DNA of 64,000 nucleotides from Phycisphaerae bacterium (lineage in GTDB: Bacteria > Planctomycetota > Phycisphaerae > WQYP01). The stretch is from assembly GCA_035504095.1 (NCBI GenBank), contig DATJSN010000001.1:54519-118518 (forward strand), given 5' to 3'. Below the pieces are notes generated by a model. That model did no database searches and was not told the DNA's origin. It saw nothing but the letters and a program-made list of their open reading frames with translations. Every line of letters starts with the position of its first letter. Positions within the stretch are counted from its first letter, which is position 1. Below, one piece after another: positions 13,951 through 31,503 of this stretch. A program made the translations under genes and the position numbers.

Positions 13951-13991
13951 TTCCACGTCACATGTTTTTATGAGTCATTACGAGTCTCCGG

Positions 13992-15143: not shown

Positions 15144-15157
15144 TATGGATCAGTTCG

Positions 15158-16114
15158 ATGATTTCTGAATCCCATCTCCGACCTACGCGTTTGATACAGC
15201 AGGATGGTGCAATTAAATTTTGTCTGTCCGCCGGACATTTTGCCTCACGCGAGCTGGAAACTGAGTCCATCATCATTCCCATGCGCAATTACCACGGTCA
15301 GCGCTGGTACACGCTTTGTATTTCTTCTCAGGTGGGTTGTCGCATGGGTTGCACCTTCTGCCAGACAGGCCGGATGGGATTGCTGGCCAATCTAAGCGCC
15401 GATCAAATCGTCATACAATTTACAACGGCACAGGAGATTCTCCGCCGGCAAGCTGATCGAAGCGAAGCTGCCGAGCCCGGTCTGCGCAACGTCGTATTCA
15501 TGGGCATGGGTGAACCTTTGGATAATTTTAACGCCGTTGTTGCAGCTATTCGTATACTCAATGATCCTGCGGGTCTGAATGTACCGCTTTCCCGCATCAC
15601 GATTTCCACGGTGGGGCGGGTGGACGGCATCCGAAAACTCGCCGAACTTCGCTGGACTTCGCTTCGACTGGCGATTTCCCTGACTGCCGCGGATGATGCC
15701 CTGCGCAATGAGCTTATGCCCGTCAATCGCGCCATGCCATTGGCTGAACTTAAAGAGGCGCTTCTAGATTATCCCCGCACAAGACGCACGCGATTTTTTA
15801 TTGAATATGTGCTGCTAAAAGACGTCAACGATTCAGAGCATCACGCCGATGCTCTGGCGGCCTGGTGCGAATCTCTGCCGGTTCGTGTGAATGTTATTGC
15901 CTACAATCCGCAACAGCCCGCTGCTTACCAGACGCCGGATGACCAGACGATTGTCGCTTTTATTCTGCACTTGCGCCAGAAAGGAATTCTTGCCAAACGG
16001 CGCGTCACCATTGGCCGAGACGTCTTTGGCGCATGCGGCCAACTGGGTAACACAGAATTTCATCGTAAGGAATTGCTTGCTTCAGGCGGAGCGGCGGCGT
16101 CGGCGGCCCAATAA
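15158..16114 (+). CDS. rlmN: Radical-SAM 23S rRNA/tRNA adenine C2-methyltransferase (RlmN/Cfr family)
   Basis: 'CISSQVGCRMGCTFCQTG' CxxxCxxC cluster, and 'VFMGMGEPLDN'. Confidence 0.8.
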   Translation: MISESHLRPTRLIQQDGAIKFCLSAGHFASRELETESIIIPMRNYHGQRWYTLCISSQVGCRMGCTFCQTGRMGLLANLSADQIVIQFTTAQEILRRQADRSEAAEPGLRNVVFMGMGEPLDNFNAVVAAIRILNDPAGLNVPLSRITISTVGRVDGIRKLAELRWTSLRLAISLTAADDALRNELMPVNRAMPLAELKEALLDYPRTRRTRFFIEYVLLKDVNDSEHHADALAAWCESLPVRVNVIAYNPQQPAAYQTPDDQTIVAFILHLRQKGILAKRRVTIGRDVFGACGQLGNTEFHRKELLASGGAAASAAQ

Positions 16115-17008
16115 CAGCATGCCCATGGCTGAACCAGCCAAAGCCAGGCTTGAAGGTTCGGGAACATCTGAAGGGTCGTCGCCGGACCATCTTCCCCAGG
16201 GGTTGGGATCAAAGCGTGGACGTGGAGGCGGGCTGACTGCGGATGTTGTAATGGTAAAGCTTGTTCCGTCGTCGGTGAGCGCAGAGGGTGTTGCGTCGAT
16301 AGTAGGCTGTTCCAGGTCAATGTCGTAGTTGGAAAACGAACTAATCGAGCCGGTAACTCCATTGAGTGTGGCGGAAGCGTCTGTGAACGTAACCGATCCA
16401 AAATTGTCCAGCGGCAATATGCCGTAGCCGTCTGACGGCGCCTCGGCAACCCATTCTGCGCTGGATCGCTTTCCACCGCTCATGGTTTGAGTTGTGCTGT
16501 AGTCTTTGCCTGTCGACAGGTCATCAAGAGATAAGTCGTATTTGTTGTTTCCCAGATAACTTACATCTGCGGAAATGGCATTTCCCGGGTTAATCGCCAG
16601 AGGAATTTCATACGAATAGCTGGGATACATTTCGTACCAGGCATAATAATCCACGCTGCCGCCGACCTTGTCAGCGGAAACACCGATTTGTTCGACTGTC
16701 GAAGAACTGAATCCATCAAGTCCCAGCCAAAATGCTGAATAGCCGCTGCTTGAGTTTGAAGCGATTGTAGGTACCGTCCAGTCGCCTGAAACGTTCGAAA
16801 AAGTTTGGCCCGAGCTGGCAACGTCGGCATAACCGCTCCAGTTCGACGATGCCGTTACCGTGGTGGCGGCCATAAGTGCCGAAGGATGCATAAAAGCCGC
16901 CATGGCGCCCAGAACGCCGGTGCCCAGAGCAATATGTTTGTTAGAGACGAAAATTTTAGTCAGTGTTGAAAACCGGCGGATCGATGGCAAACGGTGCATA
17001 TTGGCCAT
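16082..17008 (-). CDS. Secreted PEP-CTERM protein with a glutamic-peptidase (G1/eqolisin)-like domain
   Basis: C-terminus 'VPEPSSLALAGSAMGMLLLGRRRRRSA' has the PEP motif, a TM helix and an Arg cluster. The body carries 'SSNWSGY...GDWTVP...SAFWLGLDGF...VEQIGVSAD...YYAWYEMYP...AEWVAEAP', which matches the G1 peptidase pattern including the candidate catalytic Gln and Glu. Confidence 0.6.
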   Translation of the reverse strand: MANMHRLPSIRRFSTLTKIFVSNKHIALGTGVLGAMAAFMHPSALMAATTVTASSNWSGYADVASSGQTFSNVSGDWTVPTIASNSSSGYSAFWLGLDGFSSSTVEQIGVSADKVGGSVDYYAWYEMYPSYSYEIPLAINPGNAISADVSYLGNNKYDLSLDDLSTGKDYSTTQTMSGGKRSSAEWVAEAPSDGYGILPLDNFGSVTFTDASATLNGVTGSISSFSNYDIDLEQPTIDATPSALTDDGTSFTITTSAVSPPPRPRFDPNPWGRWSGDDPSDVPEPSSLALAGSAMGMLLLGRRRRRSA

Positions 17009-17139
17009 TGAGAGTCCTCCCCCATGTTAGAGCCGTATCATGTATGAGAAACTCTAACCTTATAATGAGCCAGGATCAACCATAAACCTCAAAACTCAAT
17101 CAACACTAGCCAACCGGCAATGCAACCTTCATTCTTTCT

Positions 17140-17988
17140 TTATATTCCAATGCCTTGCTTTCGTGTTTGCGATTGTGCGGCGGTTTGCCGCCTTTCACCG
17201 TCAATAATGCTTTGCAACGGATGACCGATCGCCTGCCTTATCCCAGCTCGAAACCGTTCCGCGATCATCAGCATGACCACCATGGCGATCACCGGCCAGA
17301 GCACATAACGAATCACGATCAGCAGGCGCTGATCAAAGTTAATCCCCTGGCCGGGCGGCGGAAGAAATACCACAATGAGCGTATTAATCAGTTCATTGGC
17401 GGAATACAAAACGCCGGGTATAGGAAATCCCGGCAAAAGGCTCTGCCACGGCAAAACAATAAACAGCAGAATGACGGACGCAATAAGTCCACGCGTCATG
17501 TGTGCTGATCCAGGTGCGCGTGCCGCAAGAATCAAAATCCACGTCAAAAAAATCAAAATGACCTGTAATGCCGCCGTGATTACGCCAATCTGTTGTGTCA
17601 CAGGCGCCGCCAGATAATACGTCGTTGCCCATTCGGAGCGTAAATTCAGTTTGCGCCCCTGAGCATCGGTCAGCCATCGCGCAGCGCCGTAATTTTCCAC
17701 GGTCTGACCGCCGGTCCATTGGTTTTGTGCCGGATTTTCATCCACTACGAAAACACCCGAAACGGTTGTTACCGCCGGCTGACTTGCCGGACGATGCGCT
17801 GCGGACGGAGTGGTTGCTACCACGGGATTACTGCCGGTATAAGGTTCGGTGGAGAACCGCACGAGAAGAAATCCAATCACCTGTGTAATCACGCAGATAA
17901 ACAGCAGTATCCCCAGCGTATTGCGTCCTGTGCCCAGTGCACGCAGGGCTATACCGTATTCGCCGTAGGGATGAACTGGTTCGGCCAT
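17140..17988 (-). CDS. Polytopic membrane protein, hypothetical
   Basis: About 5 predicted TM helices. Start placed at 'MAEPVHPYGEYG'. Confidence 0.45.
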   Translation of the reverse strand: MAEPVHPYGEYGIALRALGTGRNTLGILLFICVITQVIGFLLVRFSTEPYTGSNPVVATTPSAAHRPASQPAVTTVSGVFVVDENPAQNQWTGGQTVENYGAARWLTDAQGRKLNLRSEWATTYYLAAPVTQQIGVITAALQVILIFLTWILILAARAPGSAHMTRGLIASVILLFIVLPWQSLLPGFPIPGVLYSANELINTLIVVFLPPPGQGINFDQRLLIVIRYVLWPVIAMVVMLMIAERFRAGIRQAIGHPLQSIIDGERRQTAAQSQTRKQGIGI

Positions 17989-18082
17989 GAAAAATCGCCT
18001 TATGCTTCCGGTCATTATACAGTGGCCGCATTGTTATGGCCCTGGAATTCTCTGATAATCTCCTCGGCATCATGCGGAGTAA

Positions 18083-19963
18083 TTGGTGAACATTCAGAAT
18101 CTTATACCTGCACCGAAAGTGGTCAGTAATTTTCCGGGAGCCTGGAAACTTCCGGTTAATGGAACAATTTCATTAGCTCTTTCCGATGAAGGGCTTCAGA
18201 ATTCCGCGCATAAGTTGTGCGGCATTCTTTCTGCGCGAACTCATTCATCATGGTCCTGGATTGCTTCACATGCTTCCGCAGGCGGCACGATTCAGTTTGT
18301 GCTTTCTCCCTGTGTACAACACGTACAGGGATATGAACTTGTCGTCGATAAGCAAGGCGTACAAGCCCGTGCTTCCACCCCCGAGGGTTTGTTTTACGCG
18401 GCTCAAACGTTGTTGCAACTGATCAATATTCATCCACGGCGTTTACCGCATCTGGAAATTGTGGATTGGCCCGACTACGAGCGCCGTGGTTTTTATCTGG
18501 ACATATCCCGCGGCAAGGTTCCCAAACTCGCAACTATTCTTGATTTAGTCGACCGACTGGCGGCGCTGAAAATCAATGAATTCCAACTTTATGTGGAAAA
18601 TGTTTTTAAATTCCGTGCGCATCCGGATTTTTATCGCGATACTACGCCATTGACCGCTGCCGAAATCCGCCAGATTGATACGGCCTGCCGCCACCGGCAC
18701 ATTGATTTTGTTCCATCGCTGACTTCGCTGGGCCACTTTGACAAAATCCTCCGTCTTGGACGCTACCGGCGTCTTGCAGAAATTGAGCCCGGGGATTTAG
18801 CTAAACAGGGCATTAAACCGTGGAGCGATGATCCCTGGACCCTCAACGTAAGCGATCCAAAATCACGGCGACTCCTTGCCGGCATGTATGACGAATTTTT
18901 GCCTAATTTTTCCAGTTCCCTAATGAACATCTGCTGCGATGAGCCCTGGGATTTGGGTAAAGGTAAAAGCCGCGCTAAAGCAACAAAGCTTGGAACCGGC
19001 CGGATTTATGTTGACTGGATTGGTTTTTGCGCCGGATTAGCGGCACGACATGGCAAACGCGTTCAGTTGTGGGCGGACATTATCATCAAGCATCCCGATC
19101 TGGTAAGTGAATTGCCTAAAGACGCCATTCTGCTTGAATGGGGCTATGAGTTCGACCATCCGTTTCCAAGACACGGCCGATTGCTCGCTGCTTCCCGCCG
19201 GGCATTTTACATTTGCCCGGGAACTTCAAGCTGGCAATCGCTTGGCGGGCGAAACTCCAATAGCTTCACCAATATCCGCTCCGCCGCACGGGCGGGTCTA
19301 TCCTCCGGTGCAGTAGGCCTTCTTAATACCGACTGGGGCGATTATGGGCATCAGCAGATGTCGGCGGTGAGCCTGCTGCCCAGCGCTGCCGGCGCCGCAC
19401 TTGCCTGGAACGTGAACCAAACCGACCGCTCAATCATCCAGGCTGCGGCGGTTCATGTACTACATTCCACTGCCCAGGTCGCACAGGCGGTTTTTGATTT
19501 AGGCAACGTTTCCAGTCGTATCAGCGGTAAGCGAATCCGCAATGCCTCGTTGGAATTTTTTCTTTTCCGCGAGCCATGGGAAAAACACGAGAAACTCAAA
19601 TTGCTCAAAATAAACAGATTGAAGCCGGAAATAAATGGGGCAAAAAAAATGATCCAAATATTTTCTACTGCCGCCGGAAAAGCGCCACCCGATCAGAAGT
19701 GGATTTTTGATGAACTTTCTTTTACCGCTCGATTGCTTCTTCACGTACTTTTGCGCACCGATTGCCGGCTTTCCCATAGCGGGACGGGTGAAAGAAGTAA
19801 AAAATTGTGGGCCAAAATTATGGCGACGCAGGCGGCGGACATTCGCCGGCTCTCCGTCGAATTTCGCACGCTCTGGCTGGCGCGTAATAAGCGTTCGCGT
19901 TTGGATGACGTTCTGGCTCACTTCAGGCGTCTGGAGAAGGAATACCGGTCTAGAGGCTCATAA
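18083..19963 (+). CDS. Glycoside hydrolase family 20-like (beta-N-acetylhexosaminidase-like)
   Basis: GH20-type N-terminal domain. 'RRGFYLDISRGKVPKLATILDLVDRLAALKINEFQLYVEN' matches the GH20 catalytic TIM barrel. 'NICCDEPWDLG' lies in the HxGGDE region. Confidence 0.55.
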   Translation: MVNIQNLIPAPKVVSNFPGAWKLPVNGTISLALSDEGLQNSAHKLCGILSARTHSSWSWIASHASAGGTIQFVLSPCVQHVQGYELVVDKQGVQARASTPEGLFYAAQTLLQLINIHPRRLPHLEIVDWPDYERRGFYLDISRGKVPKLATILDLVDRLAALKINEFQLYVENVFKFRAHPDFYRDTTPLTAAEIRQIDTACRHRHIDFVPSLTSLGHFDKILRLGRYRRLAEIEPGDLAKQGIKPWSDDPWTLNVSDPKSRRLLAGMYDEFLPNFSSSLMNICCDEPWDLGKGKSRAKATKLGTGRIYVDWIGFCAGLAARHGKRVQLWADIIIKHPDLVSELPKDAILLEWGYEFDHPFPRHGRLLAASRRAFYICPGTSSWQSLGGRNSNSFTNIRSAARAGLSSGAVGLLNTDWGDYGHQQMSAVSLLPSAAGAALAWNVNQTDRSIIQAAAVHVLHSTAQVAQAVFDLGNVSSRISGKRIRNASLEFFLFREPWEKHEKLKLLKINRLKPEINGAKKMIQIFSTAAGKAPPDQKWIFDELSFTARLLLHVLLRTDCRLSHSGTGERSKKLWAKIMATQAADIRRLSVEFRTLWLARNKRSRLDDVLAHFRRLEKEYRSRGS

Positions 19964-20022
19964 TCAGAGAATTTCGATTAAACTTGCTTTTATCTAATGG
20001 AGCTTAATTGGGAGGCATTTAA

Positions 20023-20244
20023 ATGGACCAACCATCAATTGAACAGCGTTATACCCAGTTGCGGGCTCTTACCAGTGACCCAACTGCGACTGCTCTGCTG
20101 GTATTGGCTGAAGTAATCCAGGCCAAATCCGCTATGGATCAGGATTCCGCCGCCCGGCTGGGAAGCGAAATTAAACTCGCCCTCGATCACATGTTCCATG
20201 TGAAGGTAGAGGGGGAAATTCACAGCGCTTCGAATGAAGTGTAA
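20023..20244 (+). CDS. Small hypothetical protein (73 aa)
   Basis: Strong RBS 'GGGAGG' 8 nt upstream of the ATG. Predicted helical. No recognisable family. Confidence 0.35.
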   Translation: MDQPSIEQRYTQLRALTSDPTATALLVLAEVIQAKSAMDQDSAARLGSEIKLALDHMFHVKVEGEIHSASNEV

Positions 20245-20277
20245 GAGGCTTTTAAAATCCATCGTGAAAGGTTTTGC

Positions 20278-21201
20278 ATGTCCTTACTGGTTACAGGTTC
20301 TATCGGCATAGATAAAGTTGTTACGCCGTTTGGGGCAAAGGAAAATATTCTCGGCGGCTCGGCGCTCTATTTTTCCTGGGCTGCCGTTCATTTCTGCAAA
20401 GTCTATCTCGTTGGTGTGGTAGGGGAGGATTTTCCTTCGGAATTCGATTTTGTTTTTGTCCATCCCAACATCGACGCACGCGGCCTGGAACGCCGGAAAG
20501 GAAGCAAAACCTTCCGCTGGGCGGGTCGTTACGATCAGACCATGAACGAGGCTACAACCACGGCTGTTGACCTGAACGTCCTGATTGAAAAATCACCTGT
20601 GATTCCGGCGGAATACGCCCAAAGCCGGGTGGTTTTTCTGGCCGCGACCCATCCGGATTTGCAGATGCAATTGCTTTCGCAGGTTCATAAACCCAAACTG
20701 GTTATTTCCGATACACGCGACCTGTGGATTAAAAATCACCGCGCGGAACTTATGAAGAGCCTAAAAAAAATTGATGGTCTGGTGCTTAATGATTTTGAGG
20801 CGCGCCTGCTGACCGAAAAGGTTAATCTCGTTTCCGCGCTCCAGCAGATCCGCAAGCTCCTCAAGCCCGGCGGGCCGCGGCTGGTGGTGATCAAAAAAGG
20901 CGAGCACGGCTGCCTCGCCGCCTATGACGATTCACTCTTCGCCATGCCGGCGTATCCAACGGAAAAAGTCGTCGACCCCACCGGCGCCGGCGATAGTTTC
21001 GCCGGCGGATTGCTTGGTTATATGACCGCACAAAAACGCTGGTCGCCGGTAATCTTTAAGCAGGCGGTCGCGGCGGGGACCATCATGGCCAGTTTTACCA
21101 TTGAAGATTTTTCCCTCGAAGCCTTGCGCCGAGCCAATCGAAGGACAATCGGGTCGCGTATGAGGGAATTTCGCAAGATGGTCGCACACGGCCTTGTCTG
21201 A
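20278..21201 (+). CDS. PfkB-family carbohydrate kinase
   Basis: Ribokinase-family signature 'DPTGAGDSFAGGLLGYM'. N-terminal GG-containing motif. Confidence 0.8.
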   Translation: MSLLVTGSIGIDKVVTPFGAKENILGGSALYFSWAAVHFCKVYLVGVVGEDFPSEFDFVFVHPNIDARGLERRKGSKTFRWAGRYDQTMNEATTTAVDLNVLIEKSPVIPAEYAQSRVVFLAATHPDLQMQLLSQVHKPKLVISDTRDLWIKNHRAELMKSLKKIDGLVLNDFEARLLTEKVNLVSALQQIRKLLKPGGPRLVVIKKGEHGCLAAYDDSLFAMPAYPTEKVVDPTGAGDSFAGGLLGYMTAQKRWSPVIFKQAVAAGTIMASFTIEDFSLEALRRANRRTIGSRMREFRKMVAHGLV

Positions 21202-21773
21202 TGAGATTATTTGTCGCGATAACAGTTTCTGAAGCCTTACGCGCCGAGCTTTTCGCTCTGCAAAAACGTTTGGAGCAGGCTAAGGCCGAGGTGCGCTGGG
21301 TAAAGCCGGAACAGTATCACATCACGGTCAAATTTATCGGCGAGGCTGCTGACGATCAGTTGGTTCAAATTGCCGCTCGCATGGACTCCGCCGCCGCGGC
21401 GACCGAGCCATTTAAACTGGATATCATCGGTCTGGATCGCATCGAATCGCGCGGCAAGGTGCGGGTGATTACCGCCGAGGTTAATTCACCCGACCAGCGG
21501 CTAACGCGTTTGCATCGGCAGGTGGATCAAAAACTTGCAGGCATGGGATTCGATCTGGATATGCGAGAACTTTTGCCGCACATCACGCTGGGAAGAGTGC
21601 AAAGCAATCATGGATTGAATCGGTTACTCAGACGGCTGGAACATTTTTCGCCGGACGCCATGGAACCCATTAGCGGCTGGGAAGTCGTGGACGTGCATTT
21701 ATTTCAAAGCACTCTGACCCCGGAGGGATCGGAATATAAAATATTGCATACCGCAAAGTTAGGCTCTGTTTGA
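21201..21773 (+). CDS. thpR: RNA 2',3'-cyclic phosphodiesterase (2H phosphoesterase, LigT/ThpR)
   Basis: Two HxT/S motifs: 'HITVKFIG' and 'HITLGRV'. Overlaps the upstream stop. Confidence 0.8.
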   Translation: MRLFVAITVSEALRAELFALQKRLEQAKAEVRWVKPEQYHITVKFIGEAADDQLVQIAARMDSAAAATEPFKLDIIGLDRIESRGKVRVITAEVNSPDQRLTRLHRQVDQKLAGMGFDLDMRELLPHITLGRVQSNHGLNRLLRRLEHFSPDAMEPISGWEVVDVHLFQSTLTPEGSEYKILHTAKLGSV

Positions 21774-21902
21774 TGAATACCCCCTCCACGTCCACTGCGT
21801 TAAAACGTCTCCACACTCGAAGATTTTTGTCGATGGTATCGGCGTTAGATTCAGCTATGTTGCGACGTTATAATCGACAAAAACGCTAATTTTTAATAAA
21901 TT

Positions 21903-22556
21903 ATGAAAAATATAATATTAGTAATACTTGGAGTGCTATCTTTTACTATAGGTGGCGCATTAGTCCTTGCTTGGCCCGTATTCGTCTATCTTTCAATTTT
22001 TGAGTTTGACGCGCCAAGCCGCGGTCCTTGGGATTATCCTGCTCGTTATGCCATCGTTTGTGCTCTTTTAGCTTATCCTATTCCGTATATTCTGGCTTTA
22101 ATCTTTTTAATACGACAATGGCATAGAGACAGATTTCATGTGTTAACCTCGCTTTCTGGCTTAATTCCATTTCTGTATATTGCTGGCTTTTTTACAATAA
22201 TAGTTCTGATTTCGACAACGATGTCTCATAAGACAATCGCACCAAATGTCATTTTGAAAACGGACGGGACCTATTATTCTTTAGTAGATAATAATGGGCG
22301 AGTGATTGTGGATCAAAACGTTATATCTTACGAAGTTATCGGTTCAAAACAATTGGTTTTGGTAAGACGAGCTCCTCTAAGGTTAGTAATCGACAATATT
22401 ACTACGTATAACTTATCAAACAACCTATATTATGCTGTAAATACGCTGAATGGTTCTGTATCAGCTCCTCTTTCTAAAAGTGAGTTCCAAAAAAAATATG
22501 CTTTGCCTGATGAATCGCAGGTATTCAAAGATTCGATGCAGATGCCGGGAGAATAA
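21903..22556 (+). CDS. Hypothetical membrane protein encoded in a low-GC island
   Basis: Four N-terminal TM helices and a soluble C-terminal domain. Local GC is far below the window average. No SD sequence. Confidence 0.5.
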   Translation: MKNIILVILGVLSFTIGGALVLAWPVFVYLSIFEFDAPSRGPWDYPARYAIVCALLAYPIPYILALIFLIRQWHRDRFHVLTSLSGLIPFLYIAGFFTIIVLISTTMSHKTIAPNVILKTDGTYYSLVDNNGRVIVDQNVISYEVIGSKQLVLVRRAPLRLVIDNITTYNLSNNLYYAVNTLNGSVSAPLSKSEFQKKYALPDESQVFKDSMQMPGE

Positions 22557-22706
22557 AAAAGACTCTGCATCTACTATTTTCTCCACCGTCCTCTGAGCCC
22601 TCTGTGATCTCTGTGGCCTGTTCCTCATCGTGATATATAGCTATCGAGCAGGGGGGATAATAAGGCGGCAGGTCAATTAAAAATTTTTGCCATATAATCT
22701 TGTGCC

Positions 22707-24236
22707 ATGGCGGCGTGGGTCAAAATCATCATTTATTTTACGCTCTGCATGCAATTGCGAGCCTATTGGAAATATATTCCCATTTCCTATGACACCACGC
22801 GTCTAACCTCGCCGGTAAAACAGGATGGATCCATAGATTACCTGGCGGCACTGAATATAAAATGTTCCCAGGGCGTGACGCCTGAAAATAATGCGGTGGT
22901 GGTTCTTCTGCGCGCTGCGGGATCAGATTATATTAATGGCCCACCGGACTATAAAAAAGAATATATGAATATGCTGGGTGTGATGTCACTGCCGTCGCCA
23001 AAACATCCGTTCGTTTATTTGTACGATTATTTATCCAAGCACGGTTTTCAATGGCAGGACGTGGACCACATTTATGGAGAGGTAACGAGAAAGCCTTTTA
23101 CCGATAGCCAATATCCGCAAGTGGGGCACTGGCTCGATTCACAACAGGACTTTATCAACGCCTATCTGGCGGCTTCGCAGATGTCGCATTGGTATGACCC
23201 TATTACTAGTAATACAGAACAATTCCAGATGTTGGCCGGTTTTCCCCGCCTGCTTTCGGCATTTAAATTTATGACGGAGAGTGTCGGGATAGATGCCATG
23301 TATGATCTTGGAGAAAACGACGTTGATGTTGCTTTGGATGACGCCCTGGCTATTCATCGTCTGACTCATTTACAAGCTCGAGTGTCGGCTATGGTCGTTC
23401 AATTAATGATCGCTGGAAGAGAAGAGGAATTCGCGGCCGATATCGACCAGCAAATCATTGCCAGTGGACTATTGAGCACAAATGACGCCAAACGAATGGC
23501 GGATGCTCTGGGTGATTTAAGGCCGCTGCCGGCCTTTTCAGAATCAATTGATGGTGAAGAACGTTATTTTGCACTTGATGCTCTTGAGAATCTCGCGCGG
23601 GGACGTCATTATCAAGTAGGCTTTTTGCAAGGTTTTGGTCCAGCCCAGCCGCAGGCGGCATTTTCTCAATTCGTTGGGCAACTATTGCCCCCGCAGCTTT
23701 CCTCCTGGGATCAAATTTCATATTTATTTGACTGGTGTGTGTTTAGAGTTGTTCCGGTTCATTATGTATTTTTAATGATCCAAGACAATCATTTTTATGA
23801 CGACTGGATGCGAATTTCTCAGGCTAAAACTTATGATCAGGCACTGTCTGAACAAAAAACGCTGAATCCAGAATCGCGTATCATGGACAGCTCATTTGCC
23901 GACGATATAGTCAAAACAATCGCATGGCGGCCGTATATTTCAAATCGCCTTATTCAGGAACAGTTCGCATATCAAACCATTCTTCCGATGGTGCGCACCG
24001 AATATGCCCTGGCCGCCTGGCATACCGATCATGGTGATTATCCCAAAGTTTTGACCGCATTAGTCCCGCAATATCTGTCCAGCGTTCCCATCGATCCGTT
24101 TGATGGCCAACCGTTGCGCTATGCGCCAACCGCCAACGGCTACAGGCTCTGGAGCATCGGCGCAACCAAACCAGGACTTACAGGGTGGTTTAGTACGGGT
24201 CTGCAATTCACCATGCCGCCGGAAAAGCAAGACTAA
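22707..24236 (+). CDS. Hypothetical protein (509 aa) with an N-terminal hydrophobic anchor
   Basis: Long ORF in a reduced-GC region. No recognised motifs. Confidence 0.5.
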   Translation: MAAWVKIIIYFTLCMQLRAYWKYIPISYDTTRLTSPVKQDGSIDYLAALNIKCSQGVTPENNAVVVLLRAAGSDYINGPPDYKKEYMNMLGVMSLPSPKHPFVYLYDYLSKHGFQWQDVDHIYGEVTRKPFTDSQYPQVGHWLDSQQDFINAYLAASQMSHWYDPITSNTEQFQMLAGFPRLLSAFKFMTESVGIDAMYDLGENDVDVALDDALAIHRLTHLQARVSAMVVQLMIAGREEEFAADIDQQIIASGLLSTNDAKRMADALGDLRPLPAFSESIDGEERYFALDALENLARGRHYQVGFLQGFGPAQPQAAFSQFVGQLLPPQLSSWDQISYLFDWCVFRVVPVHYVFLMIQDNHFYDDWMRISQAKTYDQALSEQKTLNPESRIMDSSFADDIVKTIAWRPYISNRLIQEQFAYQTILPMVRTEYALAAWHTDHGDYPKVLTALVPQYLSSVPIDPFDGQPLRYAPTANGYRLWSIGATKPGLTGWFSTGLQFTMPPEKQD

Positions 24237-24272
24237 TTCTCATTCCGGATTTAAGAAGATAGACTATGCAGA

Positions 24273-26639
24273 ATGACCAGCGGTATAAATGATTCAAATT
24301 TTGTTTTAGCAACGAAAATATTTATGCCTTGTCGATTTAACATCGGTATCCCGGTGCTTCTGCTGGTCTTTGTTGCAGGCTTCGCTCGAGCCCAATCCAA
24401 CGTGGACTACATCGACCCCATGTTCGGTGCGATTACCGATGTTCCTCGCGACTGGGGTGACGCGGCCGGTAAGACATTTCCCGGCGCCGACACGCCGTTC
24501 GGCCTGGTGCAACTAAGTCCTGATACCATCACCGGTGGGGATAGGGGTTCAGGCTATTCGGCCGACGACAAAACCATTGAAGGTTTCAGTTTTCTGCACA
24601 TGTTGGGTGTAGGATGTTACGGCGACCTTGGTAACCTGCAGGTCATGCCTGAAACCGGACCGCTTATCATCGACCGCACTACGGCAAAAAGCGCATATCA
24701 ACAGAAAAATCAAGTCGCTACCGCCGGCTATTACAGCGTGGTTCTGGACCGTTACCAGGTGAAGACGGAATTGACCGCTGCGCCCCATGCCGGCTTCATT
24801 CGTTTTACTTTTCCAGCTTCGGTTTCCAGTTATATTAAATTCGATCTCGCTCGTCGCATCGGCAAGCTCGCCGACTCTCATTCCACGGCTCAATTCATAC
24901 ATCAGTTGGATGCTTATACCGTGGAAGGTTGGATATACTGCGACCCCAGCAGCGGTGGATACGGTTGTTTTCAACGCGTTTCGCACTATACCGTTTATTT
25001 CTACATGAAATTCCATGATCCGATTAAATCATTCGGTATATGGGATGGCCAGGATGTTTCGCGCAGTCTTACGGAACTGAACGGCAAGAATTCCGGTTTT
25101 TTCATTGAGTTTCCTACTACGCAGGGGCAGCAGGTCCTGGTTAAAGCAGGCATTTCTTTTGTGAGTATGGATGGCGCTCGCGCCAATCTTTTGCATGACA
25201 TTCCGGGTTGGGACTTTGACGCCGTTCACCAACAGGCACGAGCGCTTTGGGCCAGCGCCATCTCCAGAATAGATGTCGAAGGCGGTTCTGACGCAGACAG
25301 ACGGATTTTTTACTCGTCGCTTTATCAATCAATGATCGATCCGCGCAATATTGTAGATGTGAATGGTTACTACGCCAGCTCGGATGGCAAGCCACACAAG
25401 GCTAACGGATTTATCGTTCGCAGCATTTTTAGTGGCTGGGACGTATACCGCGCCGAATTCCCGCTCCAGAACCTGATCAATCGTAGCATGGTTAATGATG
25501 AAATTAATACGCTGATGCAATTAACCCAACAGGGTGACGTAAAGGGTCTTGCCCGCTGGGAATTGCTGGGTATAGACACAGGCGAGATGGTGGGCGATCC
25601 GGCCATTTCCATTATTGCCAATGCCTATCTGCAGGGAATTCGTGGTTACGATGTGCAGAAAGCCTATCAACTCTGTCGCGCCGTAGCGCTGGGGCCGGCC
25701 GATCAATCGAATCGCGTTGATTTTAACGATTGGATCAAGCACGGCTATTGCATGGGAAAACTGTCTATCTCCGCAACGCTCGACAATTCCTATGATGACT
25801 ACTGCCTGGCGCAGTTTGCTCAAGCACTTGGAAAGACCGACGATGCCGCTCAATTGTATAAATCCGCGCAAAATTACCGCAACATCTTTGATTCCAATAT
25901 CCAATGGTTTCACGGCCGCACTGTCGACGGTAATTTAATTCCCTGGCAGGGTTTCACGACATTTGGTCAGGGCTGTATCGAAAGCACTCCGGGACAGGAG
26001 GGTTGGTACGTGCCGCAGGATGTGCAGGGTTTAATCAATTTATTGGGCGGCCGGGACAAATTCGTCGCCCGGCTCAATGAAATGTTTGAGAAAACGACTC
26101 CGGCGATGATGGTGCAGTGGAATAATTATTACAATATCTCCAACGAAAACGTCGAGCAATGTGCGTTCATGTTCACTTATGCAGGCGCGCCTTGGCTTAC
26201 GCAGAAATGGTCCCGTTATACTTGCTCTACCGCATACAAGACTGGCCCATACGGTCTGCCTGGCAATGACGATGAAGGAGAATTATCCGCTTGGTATGTA
26301 CTGGCCGCTTCTGGTTTTTATCCCGTGTGTCCCTGCAGCAACGTTTATATCCTGGGTAGTCCGGTCTTCTCCCGGGTGACTTTCCATCTTGACTCAGCAT
26401 ATGCCGGTGGAGGAAAAACATTCAGCATCGTCGCTAAGAATAATTCCCCGGTCAATATCTATATCCAGTCGGCCCAGCTTGATGGAACGCCGCTCAAGCG
26501 CGCCTGGATCACCTATCAGGAAATTTCCAATGGCGGCACACTGGTACTCCAAATGGGGCCCACTCCCAATAAAACCTGGGGTTCTGATCCGCAAGACGCG
26601 CCGCTGTCGCTTTCCATGCCGCTACAAAAGCTGAACTGA
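24273..26639 (+). CDS. Secreted glycoside hydrolase, GH92-like (putative alpha-mannosidase family)
   Basis: Signal peptide. 'KTFPGADTPFGLVQLSPDT' and 'GFSFLHMLGVGCYGDLGN' resemble the GH92 N-terminal signatures. Confidence 0.45.
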   Translation: MTSGINDSNFVLATKIFMPCRFNIGIPVLLLVFVAGFARAQSNVDYIDPMFGAITDVPRDWGDAAGKTFPGADTPFGLVQLSPDTITGGDRGSGYSADDKTIEGFSFLHMLGVGCYGDLGNLQVMPETGPLIIDRTTAKSAYQQKNQVATAGYYSVVLDRYQVKTELTAAPHAGFIRFTFPASVSSYIKFDLARRIGKLADSHSTAQFIHQLDAYTVEGWIYCDPSSGGYGCFQRVSHYTVYFYMKFHDPIKSFGIWDGQDVSRSLTELNGKNSGFFIEFPTTQGQQVLVKAGISFVSMDGARANLLHDIPGWDFDAVHQQARALWASAISRIDVEGGSDADRRIFYSSLYQSMIDPRNIVDVNGYYASSDGKPHKANGFIVRSIFSGWDVYRAEFPLQNLINRSMVNDEINTLMQLTQQGDVKGLARWELLGIDTGEMVGDPAISIIANAYLQGIRGYDVQKAYQLCRAVALGPADQSNRVDFNDWIKHGYCMGKLSISATLDNSYDDYCLAQFAQALGKTDDAAQLYKSAQNYRNIFDSNIQWFHGRTVDGNLIPWQGFTTFGQGCIESTPGQEGWYVPQDVQGLINLLGGRDKFVARLNEMFEKTTPAMMVQWNNYYNISNENVEQCAFMFTYAGAPWLTQKWSRYTCSTAYKTGPYGLPGNDDEGELSAWYVLAASGFYPVCPCSNVYILGSPVFSRVTFHLDSAYAGGGKTFSIVAKNNSPVNIYIQSAQLDGTPLKRAWITYQEISNGGTLVLQMGPTPNKTWGSDPQDAPLSLSMPLQKLN

Positions 26640-26648
26640 TTCTTATTT

Positions 26649-26782
26649 AAAATCAGTGGCCAGCGTCACATCGCGCCAGGTTTCGATTTCTTTGCTTAGG
26701 GAATTTATTTTTGTCGTCGCACGCTGGTAGGCGAGGGCACCTAGCAGCAAATGCAATGGCGGATTTTTGCTGGTGACCGCGT
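26649..26782 (-). pseudogene. Detached 3' fragment (about 44 codons) of an SDR oxidoreductase gene. It is one copy of a 134-bp direct repeat.
   Basis: About 95% identical to nt 32728-32861, the 3' end of the intact SDR gene. It translates to '...LLGALAYQRATTKINSLSKEIETWRDVTLATDFK*' and has no upstream coding continuation. Confidence 0.6.
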
Positions 26783-26799
26783 ACAGATTTAAATACAGA

Positions 26800-27494
26800 T
26801 TATGTATCGGGTGAATTGCGAATGGCGAATCTAAGAAGTTCAGCGCTGTTTTTAAAGTTCAATTTTTCTTTAATGTGTTCACGATGAGCTTCGATGGTTT
26901 TGATGCTCAGGCATAACTTGTCGGCGATCTGTTTGACGTTGTTACCGGCTCCAATCATGCGAAAAATTTCCAGTTCACGATCGGTCAACCGGTCCATTGG
27001 CAGTCCGCGGTCGCGTTTTTTGCCGGCAACCATCCGCTGCAGAAGCACAGCGTTCATTTTGCTGCTGACATATACCTGACCTGACAGAACGGTGCGGACC
27101 GCGGTTAACAGTATTGGCGGCGCCTCCTGCTTCATCACATAACCACCAGCGCCAGCGCGCAGCGCCCGTTCAGCATATATTGACTCATCGTGCATGCTCA
27201 CGACAAGCGCCGGCAGGTTGGGAAACTGTGATTTGAGTTCCTTTATTAACTCGATGCCATCGCTGTCTTTCAACGAAACGTCCACCATGACCAAATCGGG
27301 TTTTGCGCCGCGTATGGCACGAAGCGACTGAAAGGCATCTTCACCCTGGCCAACGACAATCAAATCCGCTTCATTGTTAATCAATTGCGCCAATCCCTGG
27401 CGCACAATGGGGTGGTCATCGACAAGAAAAATTTTCCGCTTGCCGGCCAGAGATGGCGAGGATGACGAAACTGCAGGCGTTTTTGCTTTGCTCA
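26800..27494 (-). CDS. Two-component response regulator, NarL/FixJ (LuxR HTH) family
   Basis: REC domain 'KIFLVDDHPIVRQGL...LVMVDVSLKDSDG'. LuxR HTH 'LTDRELEIFRMIGAGNNVKQIADKLCLSIKTIEAHR'. Confidence 0.85.
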
Positions 27495-27502
27495 TGATCG
27501 TC

Positions 27503-28411
27503 TCATTGTGTCTTGACGCTGGTATCCGGACAAGTAAAGTCCAGATCGAAAATGACGGATACCCGATTGTCAGCCTTAATAAGACCAAAAAACGCGGAAG
27601 GCGGAATAATTCCATAGTCACTCATGAGTACGTCGAATTTCGACCAGACATAAAAATGCCCATAAACATCCCGTTGCACAAACATATTTGTCAAAAGTGA
27701 TCGTTGCACGCCGGCGAGGGTCAGTTTTCCTAAGACGAGCAAATCCAATTCCGGCCGGCCGTTGGCATCCCACTGGATTTGAGCCCGCTTTAGCTGTTCG
27801 AAGATATAATCGATGGCGGGATTCCGCTGAGCATTCAAGGCATCATGTAAATCGTGGTCACGAGCGGCGTTATCACTGCGCAAAGACACGACCGGCAATG
27901 ACAACGCACCGCTCGGCGGATCGTGCAACGTTGAGGTCGCTGGGAAATCGGCAGCAGCAATTGCAACCGATTTAGCGGCGTTGTTTCCCGCGGCGTCATC
28001 CTGGTTCGGAGCCTGAGGAAGATGATTGAACCAACTCTCGAGCTTAGAACCGGAAACAGCGAGGATCACCTGGCCCTGAACCTGGGTGCTGCGGCTATAC
28101 CATGAACCTATGGTCGCCGTGCCATTAAGTTCCACATAGCTGTCAGGACTTATCACAAAATGCAAAGGCGTTTTCTGGGCGTTGAAGTCGACCACCAACG
28201 GTTTGGAAACTTCCACCTGTGCACCCTGGGGTTGGGCGGGTGGATCGCTGCACGCCGGCAGTAACAGAGCGATCAACAGGCAGGGCAGACTCAGTCCGAA
28301 GGAGGCAAAACGTGGTTTACGTGGACGTTGTGGACAGCGGTGATTATCTGACGTGCAATCAACGCAAAACCGCGAATGACCGATTTCGGGCTGGAAAGTT
28401 CCTTGACTCAT
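27503..28411 (-). CDS. YceI-like domain lipoprotein
   Basis: Lipobox 'LLPAC'. 'RDHDLHDALNAQRNPAIDYIF' resembles the YceI core. Confidence 0.55.
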   Translation of the reverse strand: MSQGTFQPEIGHSRFCVDCTSDNHRCPQRPRKPRFASFGLSLPCLLIALLLPACSDPPAQPQGAQVEVSKPLVVDFNAQKTPLHFVISPDSYVELNGTATIGSWYSRSTQVQGQVILAVSGSKLESWFNHLPQAPNQDDAAGNNAAKSVAIAAADFPATSTLHDPPSGALSLPVVSLRSDNAARDHDLHDALNAQRNPAIDYIFEQLKRAQIQWDANGRPELDLLVLGKLTLAGVQRSLLTNMFVQRDVYGHFYVWSKFDVLMSDYGIIPPSAFFGLIKADNRVSVIFDLDFTCPDTSVKTQ

Positions 28412-29112
28412 TTTCCTGCATCAGATGCTGAAGTTGTCAGTTGCCAGGTCGCGGTCACGGTGATCGCGTCTCCGGATTTAATTATGCCTAACATCGCCGT
28501 TGGAGGCTGCACGCCAAAGTCAGTCATTTTCAGGTTGGCGCTGGTGCTAATGGTCAAACTAGTATTATCCTGATGTGTTATAGCAAGTTCCAGAGATGTT
28601 TTCTGCGCTACGCCATTAACCGTCAGATTGCCAGTGGTATCAAAAACAAAGACATTATTTTGGCCATTCGGGGCAGGTTTCAAGGTCGCTTTAGTCAGTT
28701 GATATGTAATCGTTGGATGCTGACTAGCATTCAGGGTGCCGTACATCGTGGAATCCATGCCCCCGCCTTCCGAGCTTTTGAGTGTGTAGACGGGGATGGT
28801 CAGTTGAATCGACTGCAGGCTTATGGGATTTGGGCCTGTGGTAGTCCATTCTCCCGACGTAGTCACATTGCCGCTGACTGTATTGCCCTGGGCGGACCAA
28901 TCGTGCAGTGTTGAGGTTCCTTTGATGGTGACATTGCCGGATGAAGCAGTGAATGTTGTGCCCTGCGGTGCGGACGCCGCAATCGAGGCAGCGCCCGCAA
29001 ATGTAATAACCAGGATAGCGAGTGCGGATACTCCAACTCCGCGCCAGGCCGCCACCTGACGGCCTGGCGAAGTAAGGAGGTGGTTGTGAAGAGCCTTAAA
29101 CAAGAAACACAT
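28408..29112 (-). CDS. YceI-like domain protein, secreted
   Basis: 'TIKGTSTLHDWSAQGNTVSGNV', 'MDSTMYGTLNASQHPTITYQL' and 'KMTDFGVQPP' resemble YceI family blocks. Overlaps the downstream YceI gene by 4 nt. Confidence 0.5.
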   Translation of the reverse strand: MCFLFKALHNHLLTSPGRQVAAWRGVGVSALAILVITFAGAASIAASAPQGTTFTASSGNVTIKGTSTLHDWSAQGNTVSGNVTTSGEWTTTGPNPISLQSIQLTIPVYTLKSSEGGGMDSTMYGTLNASQHPTITYQLTKATLKPAPNGQNNVFVFDTTGNLTVNGVAQKTSLELAITHQDNTSLTISTSANLKMTDFGVQPPTAMLGIIKSGDAITVTATWQLTTSASDAGK

Positions 29113-29125
29113 GTTCTGACTCCAT

Positions 29126-30787
29126 TTAAAAGCCGAAGGCGATCTCAGCAGTCACACCGCTGAAGCGTGGATTGTCGGAGGCGACAACACCGCTCACCAT
29201 ACCGGTGTCGGGGGCAAAGTTATAATACTGCTGATAGACGTACTCTACTTTGGTGAGAATACTCTTGGTCAGCCAGTAGCCGCCGCCAACCTGAACGCGT
29301 CCGACCCAGCCATTGGTGTCGACGCCATGAACAGCACCGGCATAAGCAAAACTATATTGTGCCGCCACATACAATGGAGCGGTGATATGGTAAGTCGCCA
29401 TGGCCTGCCCATAAAGCCACCGTTCGTCGTAGGCGGAGTCCTGGGTCCATCCGACATTTCCATACATTTCCCACGGCCAGTGGTTCCAGGTTATATCACC
29501 CTGATAAGCCTGAACATCGAGTCCGGCTTCAGGTGTGATCTGGCCGCCATCATCACCGGCATTGAAAATGCCGTTATAAGGTTCGCCACTGCGTGTGGAG
29601 GCATACAGATCCGTGATCTGATTATCGGTAGCGAGATCTTCGGCGTTAGCAGTGCCTCCGAGGTCGCAATAGTATACGGAAGCCGATAGCCGTAAATCAT
29701 TGCCGATATAGCCCCAAACTTTGCCGTGAACAGCAGGATTGCTGCCATAATCAAAGTAGCCGGTAGTAGTGCCGTTGCTAAATCCAGCCAGCCAGTATAT
29801 GGGACCTTTGACGGAGTAGAGTTCGAAACCGATTTGTTCTGCGCTGGGATCCACCACGGCGTTTCCAATCAATGGGTTAAGCTCAACGAAAGCGTTGTTC
29901 GACCGGTGGAAGTTTTGATCACCGAAGTCGATGTCAAATGCACCGGCTTTGAGATTGATATAGTTAAAGATATCTCCAATTGGACCGCCGGCGAAAGGAG
30001 GGGGCAATTGTTTAATGATCAAATAACCCTGGTCGCCATACGTCGTGCTGGGGTGCCCAACGCTGGATAGGTACAAATCGAAGAAGACATCCAATTTCCC
30101 GGGAATGGTTGCCAGAAAATCGAGATTGCCATAGGCCGTTTGGAAGCCCGGATCTAAACCAGGATACTCTACTGCGGGCATTGGAGGAGTGTGATAAGCG
30201 GCTTGCTGGGTGAGTGCCTGATAACGGCCGACGGTTTGCACGCCTATGTAAAATCGCATGTCCCCGAGCTGGCCTATCTGCATGTTCATATCAGGCCGAA
30301 TGTGTGAGGGATTCTGGTTTTCGAAAGGCGAAAAATAGTTGATGCCAGTTGGAGGAGTAAACATGTTCTGAAACGTCTCGGAAATGTTATTATCGGTAGG
30401 ATGTTCGGCAAGGTCCGCCGAAATCGTTTCGGAGTTGGACATGACCTCTTTGTAAATCGAATCAATGGCTTTGGCCTGGGCCTCGGCCGTGGCCTGAGCT
30501 GTGGCCTGGGATTCCGCTGTCGTGGCATTTTGCGTTTTTAGAACGGCGATCTGCTGTTCCAGGCTTGCCTCCGTAGCCTGGCTGGCGGCCTGGTCTTTTT
30601 TGAGAGCGGCCAACTGCTGCGCCATTGCCTGCATCTCGGCTTGTACTGCTGTGTTGCTGGTTGTTGTGGTGGTTGCGGCTGAAGTTGAGCTTGAATTTGC
30701 AGCGGCGGTATCGGCCCATAATGCCGGCACCGGCAAAGTTACGGCTGCAAGTGCGATACACATAGCCATTTTTTGTTTGAATGTCAT
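29126..30787 (-). CDS. Outer-membrane beta-barrel (porin-like) protein with an N-terminal coiled coil
   Basis: Signal peptide. Ala/Gln-rich heptad segment 'AVQAEMQAMAQQLAALKKDQAASQ...'. Gly/Tyr-rich alternating strands. C-terminal '...AEIAFGF' ends in Phe as in OMP beta-barrels. Confidence 0.5.
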   Translation of the reverse strand: MTFKQKMAMCIALAAVTLPVPALWADTAAANSSSTSAATTTTTSNTAVQAEMQAMAQQLAALKKDQAASQATEASLEQQIAVLKTQNATTAESQATAQATAEAQAKAIDSIYKEVMSNSETISADLAEHPTDNNISETFQNMFTPPTGINYFSPFENQNPSHIRPDMNMQIGQLGDMRFYIGVQTVGRYQALTQQAAYHTPPMPAVEYPGLDPGFQTAYGNLDFLATIPGKLDVFFDLYLSSVGHPSTTYGDQGYLIIKQLPPPFAGGPIGDIFNYINLKAGAFDIDFGDQNFHRSNNAFVELNPLIGNAVVDPSAEQIGFELYSVKGPIYWLAGFSNGTTTGYFDYGSNPAVHGKVWGYIGNDLRLSASVYYCDLGGTANAEDLATDNQITDLYASTRSGEPYNGIFNAGDDGGQITPEAGLDVQAYQGDITWNHWPWEMYGNVGWTQDSAYDERWLYGQAMATYHITAPLYVAAQYSFAYAGAVHGVDTNGWVGRVQVGGGYWLTKSILTKVEYVYQQYYNFAPDTGMVSGVVASDNPRFSGVTAEIAFGF

Positions 30788-31503
30788 AATCTGGTTCCTT
30801 TCACTTCTTTAAAGGTCAACCGCCCGGGGGATGCACACGCATCGCCACATCACATCGAGCCAAGATTGTGAAACTTTTCACATACGATTTCATTAATTAG
30901 CACCTGCCATTCATTTAGTAATCCACAAGTACCGTTGAATCCCGGACAATGGCTGCTAGCCATGAAATTCAACTTAACCTGAGTGTTCTGATGGCTCGGT
31001 AACTGTTTCATGTAATATCTAATCGCATATTTGGGGCGATGCCGCGATGGGTGGGACCATGATTTAGATGTAAGAATTGTTCCAGCGCGACATCGGAGAA
31101 TTACCTATGACGAGGAGACGGGGTACAGGCTATAGGCCACAGATTGAGAAAGAGGACAAGGGATAGGGAGATTACAAAAGCTTTCCCCAACGAGGATCAA
31201 TGATGGTGCCGACGCCAAAGATATTTACCGATTTTGCTTTACGTTGGGCTGAGTGTCCGGCATTTGGTTGTGTTGAATGTTTGCGATGCGAGCGCCCGCG
31301 GGAGTGAAGCGCCCTGTGGGGGAGGGTTTTAATGACGCCGGAGCCATGCAGTGCATGGGATGGTCGGCGCCGAATAAAATGGACCTTTTTTGCCATAAGG
31401 CGCACGCCATTTCTCTCGAACACTATTGAATTATCGCATGAAGATAACGGCAGGTTTATCAGAGGGGGCCACGCTTGGGGCGTAGGTTATTTCCCGATGC
31501 GGC

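Follow-up and report, generated by a model that had tools for sequence, protein, structure and literature searches.

A probably foreign single-gene islet beside a native-type gene in the spacer between thpR and a short-chain dehydrogenase gene of a Phycisphaerae bacterium

The locus analysed here lies in a 64-kb stretch of DNA (hereafter, the window) of a 119-kb contig from the metagenome-assembled genome (MAG) of a Phycisphaerae bacterium. We focus on two adjacent open reading frames (ORFs): ORF-A, which encodes a protein of 217 amino acids (aa), and ORF-B, which encodes one of 509 aa, the two proteins being VMG59_00320 and VMG59_00325. They are preceded by a GH20 gene, a pfkB gene and thpR, and followed by a GH92 gene, a 5.9-kb module and a short-chain dehydrogenase (SDR) gene (Table 1). 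An earlier note on this DNA, which had placed both ORFs correctly, proposed that they form a single low-GC island (21780–24240), recently acquired by horizontal transfer and possibly encoding an effector/immunity or toxin-like pair. We favour a different reading, which appears to us the probable one: ORF-A is a foreign single-gene islet in a recombination-prone spacer between thpR and the SDR gene, beside a native-type ORF-B, and the two do not form a toxin/immunity pair.

With regard to base composition, the mean GC content of the window is 52.0% rather than the approximately 55% taken as background in the earlier note. Sliding-window GC and the codon index identify the stretch after the thpR stop codon as the most AT-rich part of the window, as had been proposed. 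The region 21774–22706 has a GC content of 38.8% and ORF-A one of 37.2%, and the lowest 300-, 650- and 1000-bp windows of all 64 kb sit on ORF-A. The minimum 650-bp window (21851–22500) has a GC content of 35.8%, compared with a mean of 52.1% (standard deviation 3.3%, z approximately -4.9), and the dip lies outside normal GC variance. When compared with the 42 other ORFs of the window, ORF-A is an outlier in GC (z -6.3), in GC at third codon positions (GC3; 30.7% versus 57.1%, z -5.7) and in an index resembling the codon adaptation index (0.561 versus 0.710, z -5.3), while GC at first and second positions (GC1 and GC2) is low too (z -3.3 and -1.8). As the deviation is mainly synonymous, the hydrophobic amino-acid content of the protein does not explain it. 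The non-coding DNA flanking ORF-A is AT-rich as well (40–45% GC). In contrast, ORF-B is only in the low tail, with 47.1% GC (z -2.3; other ORFs reach 45.5–48.5%) and a GC3 of 47.1% (z -2.2), and its codon index is normal (0.691, z -0.7). The compositional anomaly therefore ends near 22600–22700: it covers approximately 21.78–22.65 kb and does not reach 24.24 kb, so the proposed island is real around ORF-A and does not include ORF-B, the codon usage of which looks native. ORF-A indeed lacks a Shine-Dalgarno sequence, as had been remarked, but this is uninformative, since 27 of the 44 ORFs of the window (start codons assigned mechanically) likewise lack one and only 17 of the 44 have one.

Sister genomes were found with the ThpR protein: L008 (GCA_035314145.1, DATFZW010000322.1; thpR 87% identical), the allele of which is also present in L009, L010 and L036, L011 (79%) and L012 (56%). 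The GH20–pfkB–thpR block is kept in all three sisters up to the thpR stop codon, and the DNA after thpR differs in each. ORF-A and ORF-B are both missing next to thpR in the three genomes, and neither is a conserved core gene at this site. L011 is collinear with positions 13483–21766 of the window and then jumps to positions 32718–33582, which carry the SDR gene (82% DNA identity, L011 8679–9545). In L011, the convergent thpR and SDR genes thus face each other across a spacer of 95 bp, where the window holds approximately 10.9 kb; the 5.9-kb two-component/YceI module is likewise missing between them, and a DUF3631 gene is found beyond the SDR gene. L008 exhibits, directly after thpR (L008 6560–9506) and from about the same entry point, its own tract of 36–40% GC with an unrelated 91-aa ORF, followed by an HNH endonuclease gene, an HTH_17 (excisionase-like) gene and a gene for a 168-aa unknown protein on the opposite strand. 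The DNA of this L008 tract has no match in the 64-kb window.

Pieces of the L011 spacer persist in the window in the right order. At the left junction, the blastn match to L008 extends to position 21787 and is followed by a collinear 25-nt block (21823–21847 versus L008 6606–6630) with 20 of the 25 positions identical and a score of 25, compared with a shuffle maximum of 24. The middle remnant, aligned with the L011 DNA between thpR and the SDR gene, reaches a score of 39, compared with a shuffle mean of 15.2 and maximum of 23. At its right end, the spacer is joined to an orphan copy of the 3' part of the SDR gene, immediately after the GH92 stop codon, and this copy forms with the sequence at the intact SDR gene a direct repeat of approximately 140 bp with about 95% identity. 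ORF-A sits between the first and the second remnants, and ORF-B and the GH92 gene sit between the second and the third. As spacer remnants are present on both of its flanks, ORF-A is read as a nested insertion of approximately 0.72 kb.

The middle-remnant motif has one exact copy in the window, and the sole other match, which needs three mismatches (CCTCGGTGTTCTCTGTGGT, 63087–63105, minus strand), lies directly upstream of the start of an 835-aa gene (60576–63083). Because of this second copy, the motif may be a recurrent regulatory or leader element rather than a unique spacer sequence.

Table 1 Features of the thpR–SDR region, in window coordinates.
Feature	Coordinates	Strand	Remarks
GH20 hexosaminidase	18083–19963		Start of GH20–pfkB–thpR block
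pfkB kinase	20278–21201		Within conserved GH20–pfkB–thpR block
thpR (RNA 2',3'-cyclic phosphodiesterase)	21201–21773	+	TIGR02258, E 8e-41; left anchor of variable site
Left remnant of thpR–SDR spacer	21774–21847		L008 similarity ends at about 21847
Imperfect inverted repeat, 21-nt arms	21824–21883		Spans left junction; DNA fold -12.4 kcal/mol, z -2.3
AT-rich inserted cassette with ORF-A and short flanks	21848–22590		About 0.72 kb, 36.7% GC
ORF-A, 217 aa	21903–22556	+	HMMER family, alignment, AlphaFold, hydropathy
Middle spacer remnant CTCTGAGCCCTCTGTGATCTCTGTGGC	22591–22617		24/27 identical to L011 8642–8668
ORF-B, 509 aa	22707–24236	+	
GH92 alpha-mannosidase-family glycoside hydrolase	24273–26639	+	PF07971, E 4e-144; TIGR01180, E 9e-155
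Orphan SDR 3' copy (last ~130 bp and a few spacer bases)	26640–26785	-	Direct repeat with 32700–32865
5.9-kb module between SDR-3' direct repeats	26786–32718	-	
Intact SDR, right anchor	32719–33570	-	PF00106, E 2.5e-50

These observations would fit a layered history of the locus. In the ancestral state, convergent thpR and SDR genes would have stood about 95 bp apart, and this spacer would then have been hit repeatedly, so as to hold now three blocks in tight packing: (i) the AT-rich cassette of approximately 0.72 kb with ORF-A only, (ii) ORF-B with the GH92 glycosidase gene, and (iii) the 5.9-kb two-component/YceI module between the 140-bp SDR 3'-end direct repeats. The ORF-A cassette would be the newest layer and would come from a low-GC donor, block (i) being taken as a recent arrival because it is the sole compositionally foreign block. 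The recent horizontal acquisition suggested for the two genes is well supported for ORF-A, which exhibits a synonymous-site skew, absence from three sisters, flanking remnants and relatives in unrelated phyla only. For ORF-B, the evidence is divided: it belongs to lineage-specific DNA that is missing in the sisters, but it is not compositionally foreign, is part of a Planctomycetota family and has a paralog in the same MAG. The locus shares with known genomic islets the atypical GC3 and codon usage of ORF-A, the absence in sisters, a different cargo at the same site in L008, and the proximity of mobile-element genes in the sisters L008 (HNH and HTH_17) and L011 (DUF3631). The ORF-A cassette differs from them in its single-ORF cargo and in that neither an integrase or insertion sequence element among the scanned ORFs nor a tRNA or target duplication is found in the window.

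Several points weigh against the reading of ORF-A as an inserted islet. No integrase, transposase, tRNA or target-site duplication marks its cassette. The window contains no tRNA gene and no Rfam family, and no recombinase (integrase or transposase) is present among the ORFs scanned with Pfam, which cover most of 16.1–41.4 kb and three ORFs at 1.6–2.3 and 55–58 kb. No convincing repeats flank ORF-A, the 140-bp direct repeats flanking the neighbouring 5.9-kb module only. At the left junction, the score of the L008 alignment barely exceeds those of shuffled sequences, a single MAG contig is the only source of ORF-A with its flanks, and the genomic contexts of both protein families are heterogeneous. 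Finally, we infer from L011 both the ancestral arrangement and the direction of change, namely insertion, the alternative being a precise loss in L011.

The protein encoded by ORF-A at first appears to be isolated, as a word-indexed search of 5.8 billion proteins returns ORF-A itself as the sole match. An exhaustive HMMER scan of 1.84 billion representatives nevertheless gives 24 matches and reveals a family, which rules out a pure ORFan. Four of these are full-length relatives, namely P0055 (30% identity, E 4e-21), P0056, P0058 and P0063, the E values of full-length relatives including 6e-17 beside the 4e-21 of P0055. Many of the remaining matches are proteins of about 100 aa that align to residues ~10–105 only, and one match, P0054 (1437 aa, 17 matched stretches), is repetitive and probably eukaryotic and was discarded. 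At least 90% of the 22 sequences in the family alignment share W24, P25, F33, D36, P38, R48, Y58 and P59. These eight near-invariant residues all belong to the ~60 N-terminal residues of a multi-helix hydrophobic domain and form the motif WP...SIFxFDAP followed by R...YP; the profile of this membrane module matches in 22 loci with E from 3e-10 to 3e-42.

The AlphaFold model of ORF-A, built from the family alignment, has a predicted local distance difference test (pLDDT) score of 90.1 and shows five helices within residues 2–106, a beta-rich domain (109–180) and a short final helix. Hydropathy gives three hydrophobic blocks (1–37, 48–72 and 80–109), so the four transmembrane helices previously assigned to the protein are an approximation only. 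A basic loop, RQWHRDRFH, is present at residues 71–79 and, because of the positive-inside rule, suggests that the beta domain faces the periplasm. No Pfam match, DKNYY included, is found for this C-terminal domain, which is common only to P0055, P0056, P0058, P0063 and P0061. Weak matches to Ibs_toxin (E 0.08), TMEM106 (E 0.05) and ComEC_MAG0480 (21 bits versus a cut-off of 150) are far under the cut-offs and were rejected as compositional noise. A search of ORF-A against the BFVD folds yields no match (best E 0.23), tblastn finds none in 50,697 phage or 72,556 plasmid records, and PHROG gives none either; a phage or plasmid origin of ORF-A was rejected on these results.

The distribution of the family was examined by scanning one genome per species for the motif [FY]xSIFxFDAP, which yielded 21 loci and three groups. 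The first comprises a protein of 220–223 aa that is near-identical across Segatella and Prevotella species. The second comprises proteins of 468–478 aa from Bacteroidales and one of 265 aa from Tenacibaculum, in which the module is followed by DKNYY-type repeats. The third comprises stand-alone modules of 107–130 aa in a Chloroflexia MAG, Corallincola, Aestuariibacter, Chitinophagaceae and Rikenellaceae. The family is thus spread over Bacteroidota, Chloroflexota and Gammaproteobacteria, where it is sparse and unannotated, and neither the protein searches nor the species-level genome scan reveal a relative in Planctomycetota. In 18 of the 21 loci, the family gene has a lower GC content than its locus (in Corallincola, 35% versus 51%), and P0055, which is closest to ORF-A, comes from a contig with a GC content of 40%.

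The 220-aa proteins of the Segatella copri group and the membrane proteins with DKNYY repeats that occur in Bacteroidales and in Tenacibaculum (PF13644 region) carry the same N-terminal module as ORF-A (profile E 1e-21 to 1e-10), followed, as in ORF-A, by a beta-rich domain; the C-terminal domain of ORF-A, however, is different. The DKNYY label of the Bacteroidales proteins is based on the visible repeat motif and on a precomputed Pfam match of a neighbour in L014; a literature search on DKNYY returned nothing useful. ORF-A is a real gene, which appears to encode an inner-membrane protein. Its helical module, WP...SIFxFDAP, would be a membrane anchor that holds the beta-rich domain, of about 100 aa, out into the periplasm, and in other phyla the same anchor carries other beta-rich domains, such as DKNYY repeats. 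ORF-A is therefore read as a mobile accessory protein of the envelope, the role of which would be to present a variable binding domain. As relatives in L014, in L032 and in the Segatella loci, where an ankyrin-repeat ORF is a neighbour, belong to arrays of small accessory genes, there is also a weak possibility of a protective or immunity-like role for ORF-A alone.

In L014 (900–5500, Logan contig SRR16963053), the family member P0067 lies inside a high-GC array of small same-strand genes, which code for three GNATs, a DUF6966 protein, an SCO4226-like protein, a DKNYY protein and a DUF1801 protein. A 26-nt element similar to CAAACTRCCGGWYCNSNGCTTGCCT recurs after several stop codons of this array, which recalls a gene-cassette array, and the P0067 ORF overlaps the next DKNYY ORF, which suggests a frameshifted fusion. 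In L032, the relative of ORF-A is found among a run of small same-strand ORFs. In L016–L028 (Segatella copri, S. hominis and Prevotella spp.), the family gene has a GC content of 33–34%, compared with up to 45% for the locus. The neighbours of the 220–223-aa family gene in L024 and L016 are a 383-aa ORF (a 226-aa copy in L016), which presumably resembles a PDDEXK/YhcG-type nuclease, an ankyrin-repeat ORF and an ORF for a 249-aa unknown protein. The Segatella/Prevotella family gene is probably carried on a mobile element.

With regard to ORF-B, 52 homologs are found, nearly all on Planctomycetota-type metagenomic contigs, and proteins of Aeoliella and Bythopirellula are included; a paralog with 36% identity, VMG59_10075 (P0003), is encoded in the same MAG. 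The residues G41, G56, V57, T58, P59, N62, G91, P165 and P446 are invariant in the family. The N-terminal hydrophobic helix is followed by a head, TT.IT.PL..DG.VDY..ALN......GVTPENNA, in which GVTPENN corresponds to residues 56–62, then by a helical middle and a C-terminal block, YP..L..LVP.Y....P.DPF...PL.Y....GY.LYS.G.NG.DDGG. The AlphaFold model of ORF-B is confident (pLDDT 84.7, predicted template modelling score 0.86) and comprises an N-terminal anchor helix, the GVTPENN head, a TPR-like alpha-solenoid and a GspG-like pseudopilin domain at about residues 413–502. In line with this, the family profile matches the GspG structure 2kep (E 1.6e-4), and 7 of the 32 family members pass the Pfam T2SSG threshold. 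ORF-B itself stays under every Pfam threshold, that of PF08334 included. The earlier statement that the protein has no recognisable domain accordingly applies to the single sequence compared with Pfam and NCBIfam, whereas the family profile and the structure show the GspG-like C-terminus.

ORF-B shares with the GspG/EpsG/PulG pseudopilins (PF08334) the globular alpha-beta pseudopilin domain. In contrast to GspG, it lacks the prepilin leader and the G-F-T-L-I-E methylation motif, its N-terminus being MAAWVKIIIYFTLCMQLRAYW, and the pseudopilin-like domain is located at the C-terminus of a 509-aa protein, behind approximately 400 aa of head and TPR-like solenoid. GspG has a calcium-binding loop of the D-x-D-G type near its C-terminus. 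The NG.DDGG loop is present in most ORF-B family members but missing in ORF-B and its nearest relatives, P0002–P0004. No type II secretion system genes are seen among the scanned neighbours of ORF-B. Within its own family (VMG59_10075, Aeoliella sp. P0033 and Bythopirellula Pla144_16040), the architecture is shared end to end, with 90–99% coverage and 25–40% identity, and ORF-B keeps all nine invariant residues, including G56-V57-T58-P59 and N62. Nevertheless, ORF-B is divergent: it shares 37% identity with its best non-self match, has no counterpart of the N-terminal cytoplasmic tail seen in its closest relatives and, unlike P0002 and P0003, is not preceded by a pair of extracytoplasmic function (ECF) sigma and anti-sigma genes.

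The contexts of the relatives vary. Family genes are found behind an ECF sigma gene and a single-pass anti-sigma-like gene (P0002 and P0003), behind DUF6159, behind LemA and an M48 peptidase, behind a lipoprotein that itself ends in a pseudopilin-like tail, and behind a sulfatase. In L001 (5131–7641) and L002 (5115–7578), the ECF sigma gene, a gene for a single-pass anti-sigma-like protein of 119–120 aa and the ORF-B-family gene (VMG59_10075 or its ortholog) form a three-gene unit in which the gene junctions overlap or almost touch, an arrangement that suggests a regulatory link between the family and ECF signalling. In L005 (4273–4863), the 196-aa lipoprotein-like protein encoded upstream of the family member P0013 has a C-terminus (containing YYKAEHEHAPKTHEEF and LPELPEGQRFLYDP) that is pseudopilin-like too. 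In the window, the GH92 gene starts 36 bp downstream of ORF-B, no terminator-like site lies between them, and the two are probably co-transcribed. ORF-B would be a membrane-anchored, periplasm-facing scaffold or adaptor. It is a diverged paralog of the gene that follows the ECF sigma/anti-sigma pair in the same genome, and it would probably be co-expressed with GH92 in envelope or glycan handling. ORF-B is unrelated to ORF-A, is not compositionally foreign and is typical of Planctomycetota.

Among the alternatives to an inserted ORF-A islet beside a native-type ORF-B, a more elaborate proposal concerns the entry point itself. The post-thpR spacer of 95 bp could be a dedicated capture site at which this Phycisphaerae lineage exchanges tight, promoter-bearing, AT-rich single-gene cassettes site-specifically, with no integrase nearby and no recognisable attC, and ORF-A could stem from a pool of mobile membrane anchors that spans phyla and serves envelope protection through the variable binding domains on display; we regard this as rather unlikely. 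A simpler form, in which the thpR 3' spacer is a dedicated capture site and the cassettes of ORF-A and L008 were captured site-specifically by an integron/attC-type or similar process, appears distinctly unlikely. It would account for the observation that the single-ORF AT-rich cassettes of the window and of L008 differ but have nearly the same starting point, after a shared GGYGTTA, and that the insertions are tight, with almost no extra DNA left. The window junction GTTAGAT fits the integron core consensus, which is GTTRRRY, and the surroundings of P0067, where small same-strand genes are arrayed like cassettes and a 26-nt element recurs after stop codons, point the same way. However, the L008 junction, GTTATGA, does not fit GTTRRRY, and no attC-like hairpin is found 3' of ORF-A in a crude test made with no attC covariance model (22550–22640, fold z +1.6 and +0.9 against shuffles for the two strands). 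In addition, the inverted repeat at the 5' junction is weak and not conserved in L008, and no integrase is present among the Pfam-scanned ORFs of 16.1–41.4 kb. Of the hallmarks of an integron, the scanned ORFs include no tyrosine recombinase, and the ORF-A cassette is single. With no hairpin on the 3' side and an unconserved one on the 5' side, integron attC capture is not supported. A metagenome scan with the thpR 3'-end pattern yielded only another copy of the L008 allele.

It could also be supposed that the window shows the ancestral arrangement, that the sisters lost the DNA between thpR and the SDR gene, and that ORF-A is an old resident whose low GC content results from its membrane-protein content or from mutation bias. 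Membrane proteins are rich in Phe, Ile and Leu, the GC1 and GC2 of ORF-A are also low, genes of the ORF-A family tend to lie below host GC everywhere, and deletions could be mediated by the 140-bp direct repeats. We nevertheless consider this scenario improbable, as the biggest deviations of ORF-A are at third positions and in codon choice, for which amino-acid content cannot account, and as the flanking non-coding DNA is AT-rich too. Moreover, a deletion between the SDR repeats would take out the 5.9-kb module only, restoring the spacer from pieces that are now 0.7 and 4 kb apart would need two more exact deletions, and no relative of ORF-A is known in Planctomycetota.

The two-gene effector/immunity or toxin/antitoxin-like module suggested in the earlier note, acquired as a unit, now seems very unlikely. 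ORF-A and ORF-B are indeed adjacent on the same strand, 150 bp apart, and both are missing at the syntenic site in sisters, and some relatives of ORF-A are found in arrays that resemble orphan-immunity arrays (L014, L032 and Segatella with the ankyrin-repeat neighbour). However, the two genes differ in GC3 (30.7% versus 47.1%), and the remnant of the ancestral spacer that lies between them implies separate insertions. When both family profiles were compared with six-frame translations of 22 ORF-A-family and 7 ORF-B-family loci, relatives of ORF-B were found in none of the former and relatives of ORF-A in none of the latter, so that the families occur together in the window and in none of the 29 other loci. 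Neither protein has a significant toxin, defence or phage profile match in Pfam, NCBIfam, PADLOC or PHROG. ORF-B is predicted to fold into a TPR/pseudopilin-like scaffold, looks like a structural envelope protein and has relatives in unrelated contexts, and the fold predicted for ORF-A is a helical bundle with a small beta domain. A toxin/immunity pair was therefore rejected, as the families do not co-occur in the other loci and no toxin domain is present, and so was a defence system, as neither ORF has a PADLOC match. An assembly or binning artefact, that is, a chimeric join in the MAG contig, could be suspected from the very different composition of the 0.7-kb segment and the single contig from which ORF-A is known, but is hardly credible, since native sequence continues to either side of the segment within the 119-kb contig, spacer remnants flank it in the right order, the identical protein is listed by several sources, including an independent Logan assembly, and a chimeric join would need both its entry and its exit within 0.75 kb and precisely in the 95-bp spacer.

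Elsewhere in the window, the 5.9-kb module comprises, on the minus strand, genes for a LuxR-type response regulator, two YceI-like proteins, a 553-aa protein with the C-terminus ...AFGF and a PAS histidine kinase. The SDR-3' direct repeats around it look like a Campbell-type or att-like integration scar, with no integrase inside. The mechanically called response-regulator ORF (26800–27621, minus strand) overlaps the upstream YceI-like ORF (27503–28411) by approximately 120 bp and its receiver domain begins only at residue 64; its true start is therefore probably a downstream ATG. Beyond the SDR gene, a 219-aa ORF with no Pfam match (33718–34377) precedes a 511-aa ORF (34421–35956), of which the first ~200 residues contain regions 2 and 4 of an ECF-type sigma-70 factor and the C-terminal extension of about 300 aa has no assignment. 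The second-lowest GC stretch of the window (56601–57250, 40% over 650 bp) has no Rfam match and is mostly intergenic, between a class II aminoacyl-tRNA synthetase gene (55075–56628) and a DnaJ-family gene (57086–58072).

The locus is an ordinary but neatly resolvable small genomic islet, which does not overturn current understanding. What the GC dip marks is just the most recent of several layers in a larger lineage-specific region, the rest of which can be recognised only with sister synteny. The analysis also brings up two protein families with no Pfam model. The first is defined by the membrane module WP...SIFxFDAP, which has a wide, scattered distribution, is AT-rich in most cases and occurs in fusion with variable beta-rich domains. 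The second is a Planctomycetota envelope family that combines a TPR-like solenoid with a GspG-like domain and is sometimes linked to ECF sigma/anti-sigma pairs; this family could be relevant to the cell envelope of planctomycetes, which is poorly understood, and to its glycan handling.

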